64,000 nucleotides of DNA. Origin: Lama glama (Eukaryota). The position numbers were made by a program, and so were the translations under genes. The stretch spans positions 8,930,001-8,994,000 of the forward strand of contig CM052816.1 in NCBI GenBank assembly GCA_028534125.1. The letters run 5' to 3'. Shown piece after piece: positions 15,271 through 49,511 of the stretch (position 1 is its first letter; each line of letters begins with the position of its first letter). The notes below the pieces were generated by a model, which was not told the DNA's origin, made no database searches, and saw only the letters and a list, made by a program, of their open reading frames with translations.

Positions 15271-15414
15271 GGGGAGGGTATAGCTCAGTGTAGAGTGCAT
15301 GCTTAGCATGCATGAGGTCCTGGGTTCAATCCCCAGCACCTCCATTTAAAAAAAATGATAATAATAATAAATAAATGAACCTAATTACCACCTCCACCCT
15401 GAAGAAAAAAAAAA
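15271..15414 (+). mobile_element. tRNA-derived SINE (camelid vic-1-like)
   Basis: A box TAGCTCAGTG, B box GGTTCAATCCC, A-rich tail; same family as 8156-8282. Confidence 0.88.
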
Positions 15415-34208: not shown

Positions 34209-34308
34209 NNNNNNNNNNNNNNNNNNNNNNNNNNNNNNNNNNNNNNNNNNNNNNNNNNNNNNNNNNNNNNNNNNNNNNNNNNNNNNNNNNNNNNNNNNNN
34301 NNNNNNNN
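34209..34308. other. Assembly gap (100 N) with the same 93 bp on both sides
   Basis: 34116-34208 is identical to 34309-34401. Confidence 0.97.
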
Positions 34309-45977: not shown

Positions 45978-47414
45978 CTGCAGGGGAGACAGAGACCAGG
46001 GTTGTTCTGAGGCAGGCCCACCTCTGCCTCCCTCAAGTACTCATGTGTTCCAGAAAATGGACTGGGCCTGGTGGGACACAGGGCCCTCTCAGAAGCCTCT
46101 GTCTCAAGTTGGGGGATATTTAATTTACTCCCATACCCCTAGTGCCTAGGCCTTGCACACAGTAGGCACTCAATAAATGTTCATTTATTGGTGAGTTACA
46201 GCTCATGCTTTCTTTCATTACTCAAGTATCCCCCCTTTTTTCTGAGACTGTCTTGACAACCCTGTCTGAAACTGTCAGTCGCCCCTCCCTCGACTCCCAG
46301 TCCCTCTTATCCTGCTCAGCTTCCTCCCTTTCTTCCCCAGCACTTCCTACCTTCTGTGTAAGCTGACTTGTATGCTGTTTACTACTTGCTTTCTGTTTCT
46401 CCCTGCAAGAATTTAAGCTCCAAAGGTCTTTGTTTTGTTTGGTCATTGAGGTACTCCAAGCACCCAGAGCAGTGCCCAGCGTACATAACAGGCTTTCAGT
46501 AAACACCCGTTCATGAGCGCACGTCTAGGCCCTGGGTGTGTGGGGCACGGGGCCTGTGTGCTCCTCGACGGGGGTGGACGCAGGGCGTTCACACCAGCCA
46601 TTGCGCTCTCGTGGAGCTCTGATCCCTTTTGTGTGCTCAACACTAATACTGTCTCTTAACAAGTCTGCCACTTCTGTTCCTCTGCAGTGTCTCCTCTACA
46701 TGACAGGTTTTCAATGGGAGGAGCTGGAACATGAACTCTACGGGAGCAGATTTATTCACTGCAGGACGCTCAGCACCCAGAACAGTGCCTGGCACTTAGT
46801 GGGTACTCAGTAAATAAACGCCTGTCTCAGTGTGCCTGCCCTTCACCCCATCACTTGTCTAGCCACATAGCTGCTTCTTTTTCCAACAAGACATATTTTT
46901 CTTTCCCATCCAGTCCTTAAACCAACTCACAGCTTCCATGGGGGTCTTACGCCACAGGCCATCAAACAGCTCAGAAGGCTCCAAGCCTTGGCAGGTGAGT
47001 GGAACCGGCAGTCAGGTGTGGGCTGTGGGGGCAGCTGGCCAGGGCTCGCATCCTGCCTCTGCACTTACTAGGAATGAGAGCTTAAGCAGGTCACTGCACC
47101 TACTTCTCTATGCCTCCATTTCTTCATCCACAAAATAGGGTTAATAAAAATAGTAACAACCTTGCAGGGTTACAGTGAGTGAGTGCCTGTAAAGGGCTGG
47201 GCACACAGTCGTGGTGCCAGAAGTACCAGGTGCTCCGAGCCCCTCCCGTGGGGGCTCACAGGGAGGACGGCAGTCGTGGCCTCGGGGTTCTTTTGTTAGT
47301 GCACGTCTAACCCCGAGGCCTCTGCCCGGCTTTCATCCACAAGTCATCAATCATAAGCTAGTGCTGGAATTGTGAACCTCTGGAGGACAGTGCCCCCAGC
47401 ACAGCCCCTCTTAC

Positions 47415-47473
47415 CCTGTGCAGCCCATTTCTTCTGTAGGCAGGCAGGGAGGCAGATTTGGAGAGGAGGGGAT
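47415..47473 (-). CDS. ABLIM3: ABLIM3 coding exon (D/PLLSKSASLPAYRRNGLHR), 59 nt, phase 1-0
   Basis: Family SKSASLPxYxRNGLHR motif; TTTTCAG acceptor, GTAAGA donor. Confidence 0.96.
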
Positions 47474-48052
47474 CTGAAAAGAAGGAGCCAAGATAATTAC
47501 CAGGAGCCCCAAACCAGGGTTACCTCTCTCTCAGGTCATCTGGCTGCAAGTGGCCAATGTTCCTCCCCAACCCTGTGGGAAGGGCCATGGACAGAGGCCA
47601 CCAGCTCCTTCCACTGCTCTCCAGACTTGCAAGTGACCATCTTGAAGGTGCCTCACCCTGGCAGAATTCTCAGCCCACCCGTTCACACAGTCTTCTGGCC
47701 TTAACCTGCACGCATGTATCCCATGGTGGGCCCATGTGTCCTGACCGCAAGGTGGCTCTGAACAAAGGCCCCAGAACTGGAGCTGAGCTCAGAACTCAGG
47801 CAGGCAGGCCCTCATGTGGGTGGAAGAGGCATGTGCTCTTTCACTCTGGGAGCTGTTGGGCTTGGCAACCTTGGTTCCAGAACCAAAGATTGAGGCCCAC
47901 TCTCTGACAAACACAATGGGGTGCACTATTTTGGATAAGGACTGTGCTGGGACATCCATGTTGTATGTCATACAGCTAAGAGGGACCTGCAGCTGACTCA
48001 GCTCTGGCCCTCCCAGGACATGTGGGCTGAAAGTAGGGTGGGCAGAACTTAC

Positions 48053-48082
48053 CGCTATCAGCCAGGTAGTGGGACCGAGGGG
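48053..48082 (-). CDS. ABLIM3: ABLIM3 30-nt coding exon (S/PRSHYLADS/D), phase 1-1
   Basis: TTTTGCAG acceptor, GTAAGT donor; translation match. Confidence 0.93.
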
Positions 48083-48199
48083 CTGCAAAAGAGAAGCCAG
48101 AGATGAGTGTTCATGGAGACACAGACATGGCTCCGTACCTGGGCCACTCAGGCTGGCAGGGCGGGGGGGGGGGTGGTCCGCCTTCAGTACTTCCTCTCC

Positions 48200-48321
48200 C
48201 ACTGGGCACTTACTAATTGTGGCACCTGCACCCCACCTCCCTCCCCGCCCAGCTTGTACCCCAGCACCTGCACCAGGGAGGGAGGTGGGGTGCAGGTGCC
48301 ACAATTAGTAAGTGCCCAGTG
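48200..48321. repeat. Perfect inverted repeat, 46-bp arms (48200-48245 and 48276-48321) with 30-nt spacer
   Basis: Arms checked base by base as exact reverse complements. Confidence 0.97.
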
Positions 48322-49363
48322 CTCAGTGATACTTGTTGCACAGATGCCACTGAATGGAGCTGAATTTTGAGCAGCACTGGTGCACTGCTCAGAGCCCAGA
48401 GCCAGGGGTTGAAAACAGTGCCCCTCAGTGGTCAAACAGGGAAATAGCTCATCAGTTCATCTCAGCTCTGCCATTAATAGATACCCAACTTCAGGCAGGT
48501 AAACCATGCCTCATTTTCTTATCTGTAAAATGGGAAAGGATAGGGGCTCCTTTAGAGGGTTATTGTGAAGAATATATGATACAATACGGTAAGGCCCTTA
48601 GCAGAGTGCCCAAGAGATACAACCCTCAGTAAAACCGGCTTTGTCATCACCGTCATCACACCACTCTCATCCTTGATCTCACCTAGAGTCAGGGTGCAGC
48701 ACAGCAAAGAGGGAAAAGCTTACGGCCTTGGAGTCCCTCTGACTTGGGTCTGATCCTGGCTCAGCCACTGACTGGCTTTCTAACTTTAGGCAAGAGGCTT
48801 AACCTCAGGTCTCTCATCTACAAAGGGGGTGATAATAATCCCTCTACACTGTGGTTCTTTGTGAGGACAGAGGGTGATAATGTGCCTGGCACACAGGATT
48901 ATAATAAACGGTACCTTTTATTATCCATCAAGTATTGACTGTTAGGATTTCCTGGCAGGACTGAATCCCACAGGAGTAAGAAAGAGGGGAGGCAGGCAGA
49001 CCACAGGAACAGGGAGGAGCTTACAAAGAGAGACTCGGGAAAAGTGCTTGAACCAAGCCTCTGCTTGTATGCCTCCAGTGATAGGAGGCTCAGTGTTTCA
49101 AAGGGCAGCCCCTTTTATTTTTGAGCCATTCAGACTGTTAGAAGCGGTTTTTCTTTCCATGGAAACTGCTTGGAAGTCACAGCTTCAGGTGACCCGAAGA
49201 AGAAACTTCTCAGGACGGAGCATGGGCTTATTTAGTGCCCCATACAGCCCCTCACCCGTCTGTTTTAGACCCTGGCGAGGCTGTAGGAGGTCCGATTCAC
49301 CGATGGAAGAACTGATGGGGAAGAAGGTGCCCCCGCCCCGGCTGGCTCAAGGGCAGCACTCAC

Positions 49364-49511
49364 AGCCGTCGAGGGACATCTCGTAGCCAGCTGTGTGCAG
49401 GGCCTCCCGGCTGCTGGTGGAGCTCCGGGGCGGGGTCCAGGGATCCGCGTAGGAGCTAGACCGGGCCTTCATCTCTTCCTTCAGAATTAGCCGGCCAATT
49501 CCGCTCTGGAG
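49364..49511 (-). CDS. ABLIM3: ABLIM3 coding exon (LQSGIGRLILKEEMKARS...AGYEMSLDG/S), 148 nt, phase 0-1
   Basis: Family SGIGRLILKEEM motif; CAG acceptor, GTGAGT donor. Confidence 0.97.

Follow-up and report, generated by a model that had tools for sequence, protein, structure and literature searches.

An intron of the gene for actin-binding LIM protein 3 (ABLIM3) contains a perfect hairpin. An inverted-repeat search found two arms of 46 nt each, at positions 48200-48245 and 48276-48321, which are 100% complementary and are separated by a spacer of 30 nt. We consider it fairly probable that this is a real inverted duplication at a single locus, of the template-switch or snap-back type and probably neutral. 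Remarkable as the structure is, hairpins of its class have already been published, and nothing points to a function. All positions refer to the window, the whole stretch of 64,000 nt (64 kb) of DNA that was analysed.

If the hairpin is real, it offers a clean, unmutated example of a single slip of replication or repair leading to a long perfect RNA hairpin in a transcribed gene. It would also provide a naturally occurring system in which to examine ADAR editing, the sensing of a 46-bp duplex as dsRNA and the structural masking of splice signals. Hairpins of this kind have been proposed as raw material for new miRNAs, as set out in the available text of PMC10710096. If it is an artefact, it flags a kind of local assembly error; either way, knowledge of ABLIM3 itself is unchanged.

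The hairpin and its place in ABLIM3

The gene around the hairpin is ABLIM3 and is carried by the minus strand. Exons for the Pfam domains AbLIM_anchor and VHP lie on the minus strand of the 64-kb window, and a 59-aa exon translation was matched by 280 of 284 candidate proteins at E <= 0.001. The named proteins among the 120 matches listed were mostly actin-binding LIM protein 3. The closest named protein among these matches was a partial ABLIM3 from Camelus dromedarius, which matches even translated intron read-through and thus points to a camelid or something closely related. The exon chain was obtained by tblastn of five of the 120 listed proteins against the window. Together with the parts of the hairpin and its neighbourhood, it gives the following layout, in the order of the pre-mRNA:

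49364-49511, minus strand: upstream ABLIM3 exon, LQSGIGRL...EMSLDG plus one base
48083-49363, minus strand: ABLIM3 intron with the hairpin, 1281 nt, GTGAGT...TTGCAG, between exons 49364-49511 and 48053-48082
48276-48321, minus strand: right arm (plus-strand view), 5' arm of the hairpin in the ABLIM3 pre-mRNA, with UACUAAU at 48310-48304 and a C-rich tract
48246-48275, minus strand: spacer and apical loop, 30 nt, containing the GCACCTGCACC copy at 48264-48274 (plus strand); unique in the assembly
48231-48250, minus strand (transcribed sense): four-tract G-quadruplex motif, a regular-expression match only, straddling the junction of loop and 3' arm
48200-48245, minus strand: left arm (plus-strand view), 3' arm of the pre-mRNA hairpin, with A|GUAAGU at 48213-48208
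48159-48173, plus strand: G-run, GGGC followed by 11 G (the 11 G at 48163-48173), 27 nt left of the hairpin
48053-48082, minus strand: 30-nt ABLIM3 exon, (S)PRSHYLAD(S), acceptor TTTTGCAG|CC, donor GCG|GTAAGT
47415-47473, minus strand: downstream ABLIM3 exon, DPLLSKSASLPAYRRNGLHR

An earlier, sequence-only reading had proposed the ABLIM3 context and the 30-nt exon at 48053-48082, and both are borne out by the protein matches and by the exon layout from tblastn. It had also described 46-bp arms that are exact reverse complements around a 30-nt loop, with UACUAAU in the 5' arm and A|GUAAGU in the 3' arm of the pre-mRNA, and the assembly confirms each of these elements at its place. The hairpin does lie upstream of the 30-nt exon as that reading had it, but the gap is 117 nt and not about 118 nt.

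The peptide of the 30-nt exon was present in all ten database proteins matching an EMS..G pattern. Of 45 database ABLIM3 proteins with motifs of the exons on either side, 37 contain it. Among the eight proteins without it, seven show the exact skip form NG-Y-PLISK, in frame; these are predicted ABLIM3 proteins, one of them a bat isoform and six from birds (P0019, P0052, P0053, P0055, P0063, P0066 and P0072). The absence of the exon from database proteins may reflect true isoforms or microexons that gene predictors missed. A search of the literature found no paper on an ABLIM3 microexon and nothing on this locus under the heading of an ABLIM3 intronic hairpin.

The perfect 46-bp stem is far beyond chance. 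Folding of 48180-48340 as minus-strand (pre-mRNA) RNA gave -121.9 kcal/mol (z = -13.98), a value equalled by none of 200 shuffles, and the plus-strand RNA gave -110.3 kcal/mol (z = -13.45). The 122 nt of the hairpin alone folded at -114.1 kcal/mol as RNA and at -62.8 (plus) and -66.8 (minus) kcal/mol as DNA. The predicted stem comprises 46-48 bp and the loop 26-30 nt. A 33-nt arm word, searched with up to three mismatches, matched nothing in the 64-kb window apart from the two arms (chance expectation 0). The region 47500-49000 contained no other inverted repeat of note and no direct-repeat families.

The loop had further been said to hold an 11-nt copy that can pair with the 5' arm and give a shorter, mutually exclusive fold. 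The copy (GCACCTGCACC, 48264-48274) is present and is complementary to 48289-48299, but the fold that it permits is far weaker than the full stem: the 5' arm and loop alone yield a 12-bp stem of -29.2 kcal/mol, as against -114.1 kcal/mol for the full 122 nt. During transcription the inner 12-bp pairing would form first and would then become negligible relative to the full stem.

Copy number and integrity of the locus

The hairpin occurs once in the assembly, which comprises 2.35 Gb in 1,072,352 contigs. A 221-nt query returned only its own locus, the 30-mer of the loop was unique, and no second copy of either flank was found in the assembly. The 26-nt core of the arm, searched through the whole assembly with up to three mismatches, was found in the two arms and in one other place. 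This arm-like word at C1:20023161 (three mismatches) was taken as a chance match, since the similarity stops at 27 nt; its flanks are dissimilar. The ends of the hairpin lack a target-site duplication, with the left flank ending in ...CCTCTCC and the right flank starting with CTCAGTG..., so that the sequence-only reading was right on this point, and the element proved to be single-copy in addition.

These results bear on the view that the hairpin is a miniature inverted-repeat element (MITE) or another interspersed repeat with terminal inverted repeats. A length of 122 bp with terminal inverted repeats is in keeping with such an origin, as is a match of 13-15 nt between the arm and the 5' region of a MIR-like SINE family. 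Against it stand the single occurrence of arms and loop in 2.35 Gb, hairpin ends without a TA, TTAA or 8-bp duplication, a score of merely 1.1-2.8 bits for the match to the MIR-like profile, and arms that make up 75% of the element, unlike those of a MITE. Because arms and spacer are unique in the genome and no target-site duplication is present, we regard the MITE reading as largely refuted and give it a likelihood close to nil.

The MIR-like SINE profile was built from 30 copies in this same genome, 30 of the 314 matches of a motif (0 matches in the control). Classification of the arm as part of a MIR SINE was rejected, as the profile matches it over only those 13-15 nt. Between 47000 and 50000 the profile found three MIR-like SINE copies on the minus strand, at 48934-48715, 48610-48501 and 47204-47022 (E = 1.9e-8 to 2.4e-5), and the first two share both intron and strand with the hairpin.

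Searches for relatives by translation and by exact words gave little. For the 171-aa frame at 47792-48304 (minus strand) none of 146 protein candidates reached E <= 0.001. The 87-aa frame at 48107-48367 (plus strand) had one match among 1.84 billion representatives (P0121, 39.8 bits, in 10 stretches), which was taken as compositional. In metagenome contigs, an exact 30-nt word from the right flank and an exact 28-nt word from the arm each had 0 matches.

A different explanation of the perfect repeat is that the inverted 46-nt copy, or the arm together with the loop, was made by the assembler or the gap closer and is absent from the animal. The assembly is indeed highly fragmented, with its 1,072,352 contigs and fixed gaps of 100 N. 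Moreover, the run of 11 G stands 27 nt from the hairpin, short-read assemblies break at such places, and the G-run at 48159-48173 may be a trouble spot for polymerases or for sequencing. Over the 2.5-kb stretch around the hairpin, even the best DNA runs contain no more than 0.91 of the words sampled, which also counts on the side of an artefact. On the other side, both flanks are collinear with the exon order of ABLIM3, the region 47500-49000 is without local direct duplications, the nearest N gap is 14 kb away, and no competing contig for either flank was found among the million small contigs. A general argument also speaks against an artefact: an assembler that follows a de Bruijn path can use only those junction words that are present in the reads. 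On this evidence we judge an assembly origin unlikely.

In fourteen DNA runs, from four organisms and several studies, the words sampled from 47000-49500 were represented to at least 0.85, and in RNA runs to up to 0.33; the coverage by DNA runs means that the locus is well covered and says nothing on the hairpin itself. The only scaffold gap in the window consists of exactly 100 N at 34209-34308.

Origin and age of the inverted copy

We infer that a single event copied one 46-nt arm from the other as its reverse complement. This would have been either a template switch during replication, according to the four-point model of template-switch mutation (TSM), or a snap-back during repair, primed by microhomology. 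The inner ends of the arms lie in a CCC/GGG-rich tract, which could supply the priming microhomology, and the adjacent G-run and G-quadruplex motif are plausible stall sites. At the outer junctions, inspection revealed no convincing microhomology. Transcription of ABLIM3 would then yield a pre-mRNA with a perfect 46-bp duplex in which a latent pseudo-exon is buried. Such a duplex would be long enough for ADAR editing and would most likely have no selected function, the hairpin being, on a prior drawn from the literature, a neutral passenger of a common class of mutation.

Snap-back of the Pol-theta type leaves templated insertions at repaired double-strand breaks that are typically shorter than 46 nt. 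The ABLIM3 hairpin resembles these products in that an inverted copy lies beside its template and the inner junction falls in a CCC/GGG tract able to prime a fold-back.

Hairpins made by template switching are described in print. According to the available text of PMC10710096, template switches make perfect stems in one event and have been reported in primates and mice. In genic regions of the human lineage the same text counts 53,666 putative events, 31,007 of which led to new stems. Copied fragments in human template switches span 25 to 125 bp; those of at least 25 bp were repeatedly confirmed, and in complex sequence lengths of up to 90 bp were reached (PMC9435742, in the part available). 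The ABLIM3 hairpin shares with the cases in the available text of these two papers (PMC10710096 and PMC9435742) an inverted copy of adjacent sequence, a perfect stem and an origin in one step, as well as a copy of 46 nt within the reported range, complex single-copy sequence and a position in the sense strand of an intron. It differs from them in a stem that is longer than in most of the miRNA-yielding cases reported there. When the properties used to recognize TSM were looked for, an exact nearby reverse complement of at least 8-15 nt was found (46 nt, 100%, 30 nt apart), and the copy contains all four bases, is not of low complexity and is no repeat (C21 T10 A8 G7; unique in the genome). The arms contain no CpG. 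As a 46-nt copy within the reported range and in the sense strand of an intron, the repeat fits a known and frequent class of mutation.

The sequence-only reading had spoken of a recent template-switch duplication seeded by the inner hairpin. Its first part agrees with the documented class, but the seeding is unsupported, because simple extension of the 11-bp inner hairpin should produce a 33-bp stem with a 14-nt loop and not the 46-bp stem with a 30-nt loop that is present; this argument comes from reasoning and not from computation. The word 'recent' is only loosely bounded. No mismatches were found across the 92 arm positions, which, barring conversion between the arms, puts the 95% upper bound on the age at about 33 to 15 My for rates of 1 to 2.2e-9 changes per site and year.

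The hints as to which arm is the older one are weak and opposed to each other. On the minus strand, the right flank is a better continuation of the MIR-like upstream segment than 96% of random flanks are (p = 0.039; 0.0225 with shuffles), while the left flank gave 0.975 in the same test and thus no continuation. On the other hand, the C-rich composition of the inner left arm persists without a break across the spacer.

Besides the hairpin, one perfect inverted repeat with arms of at least 30 nt was found in a sample of 159,523 nt, which is too small for a rate. It lies in L018 (2332-2361 and 2452-2481; C13, around 18.465 Mb) and consists of two arms of 30 nt on either side of a 90-nt spacer. 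Each arm is single-copy in the assembly, the middle of the spacer matches a dispersed repeat, and it adjoins a TAGG-type microsatellite. The L018 repeat may be another product of template switching. The occurrence of a second such repeat, again with single-copy arms, is a hint that events of this kind, or errors of this kind, are no rarity in the assembly.

Splice signals, small RNAs and editing

The sequence-only reading had suggested that the stem masks the branch point of the 30-nt exon, and this did not stand. From the branch-like A at 48305 it is 222 nt downstream to the acceptor of that exon, and 16 AG dinucleotides intervene, eight of them in the 117 nt that separate the hairpin from the exon. 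The acceptor moreover comes with its own pyrimidine tract and with a CUCAU branch candidate (A at -22), neither of which is part of the stem. With the branch-like A so far away and a proximal candidate at hand, the signals that the stem masks are not those of the 30-nt exon, and no splice signal of this annotated exon was found within it. The pairing of donor-like and branch-like motifs is itself automatic: UACUAAU and GUAAGU are nearly one 10-nt word and its reverse complement, so that a palindrome holding the donor-like word must hold the branch-like word.

The same motifs do, however, outline a latent pseudo-exon, so far as can be judged from the letters of the intron:

48214-48267, minus strand: predicted latent in-frame 54-nt pseudo-exon, with UACUAAU, pyrimidine tract, AG at 48269-48268 and GUAAGU at 48213-48208

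The first AG after UACUAAU, at 48269-48268 in the pre-mRNA sense, is carried by the spacer 48246-48275 and follows the branch-like A by 37 nt. The 33-nt tract before it is 70% pyrimidine. The 54 nt from 48267 to 48214 are in frame from the phase-1 upstream exon and contain no stop codons. The stem covers the branch site and the donor together with the greater part of both the tract and the body of the pseudo-exon, and leaves the AG alone in the loop; the putative exon would thus be buried.

It is conceivable that the hairpin acts as a structural splicing switch, in which the stem hides branch site, tract and donor and thereby silences the 54-nt cassette or changes how far the 30-nt exon is included. 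Opening of the stem by a helicase, by ADAR editing or by an RNA G-quadruplex would then change the isoform. Such a role would suit the full exon-like layout (the A of UACUAAU 37 nt before the AG, 70% pyrimidine, 54 nt free of stops, A|GUAAGU), the overlap of the G-quadruplex motif with the junction of loop and 3' arm, and the lack of the 30-nt exon in eight of 45 database ABLIM3 proteins, which are possibly misses of prediction. It is opposed by the distance of the masked signals from the 30-nt exon, to which they do not belong and which has its own branch candidate at -22, and by the automatic pairing of the two motifs in a palindrome. In addition, a stem of -114 kcal/mol should stay closed, which would leave the pseudo-exon permanently silent. 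We therefore consider a splicing switch very unlikely.

Stems that mask signals of a used exon are known from the donor of MAPT exon 10 and from TSL2 of SMN2, where they are short and imperfect. The ABLIM3 hairpin is like them in holding a donor-like GUAAGU and a branch-like UACUAAU in a duplex, and differs in that its stem is perfect and 46 bp long and the masked signals belong to no annotated exon. A still bolder proposal would be that one lineage-specific template switch wrote both the in-frame 54-nt cassette exon and the 46-bp stem that silences it, giving a self-locking splicing switch that could be opened by ADAR editing, a helicase or a G-quadruplex, or diced into new small RNAs; to this we attach an even slimmer chance.

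That the hairpin might be a nascent miRNA, another suggestion of the sequence-only reading, was not supported. In an E-value search of Rfam all matches at the hairpin were to miRNA models and lay below gathering, the best being mir-4716 with 54.5 bits as compared with a gathering score of 76. The same models matched both strands, which indicates that the perfect stem itself scores. The likeness to young intronic miRNAs (Rfam mir-4716, mir-4433, mir-4436 and mir-3138) consists in a long, near-perfect intronic hairpin with scores on both strands. The difference is that the hairpin scores 46-55 bits against gathering scores of 74-90, and no relation to these families in sequence was seen. At gathering, Rfam returned a single tRNA-like match (15274-15344) for the whole 64-kb window and nothing at the hairpin. 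This match, on the plus strand and with 48.6 bits against a gathering score of 29, could be a tRNA gene or the head of a tRNA-derived SINE.

On the small-RNA view, the hairpin would be the precursor of a young intronic miRNA or endo-siRNA; it would have arisen through template switching, and Drosha and Dicer would process it from the excised ABLIM3 intron. The available text of PMC10710096 gives a stem of about 35 bp and an apical loop of at least 10 nt as preferred for pri-miRNAs; the loop of 26-30 nt agrees with this and, with the sub-threshold Rfam matches headed by mir-4716 (54.5 bits), speaks for a precursor, but the perfect stem of 46-48 bp is too long. Of 99 intragenic miRNAs derived by TSM, the same text places 81 in introns, on the sense strand, and it finds only 57 annotated miRNAs (0.9%) among 6,054 stems of miRNA size, a base rate that tells against a precursor here and on which the hairpin is probably neutral. 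A table of intragenic miRNAs lists a pairing of miR-95 with ablim3 for Placentalia (PMC11848845, in the part available), but no Rfam miRNA reached gathering in this 64-kb part of ABLIM3. Nor does the 3' flank of the hairpin contain a CNNC motif within its first 25 nt. Given this, and Rfam matches below gathering to the same families on both strands, we hold a small-RNA precursor to be extremely improbable.

The favoured reading, a neutral inverted duplication, leaves room for editing of the transcript. Substrates of ADAR hyper-editing are transcribed RNAs that pair with themselves over about 30 bp or more, and the predicted 46-bp duplex in the sense strand of the ABLIM3 intron exceeds this length. 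Inverted SINE pairs, which are ADAR substrates, likewise form intronic intramolecular dsRNA of more than 30 bp; the ABLIM3 hairpin differs from them in that it does not consist of two repeat copies, is much shorter and is perfectly paired. On the predicted fold, the 46-bp intronic duplex is a plausible substrate of ADAR.
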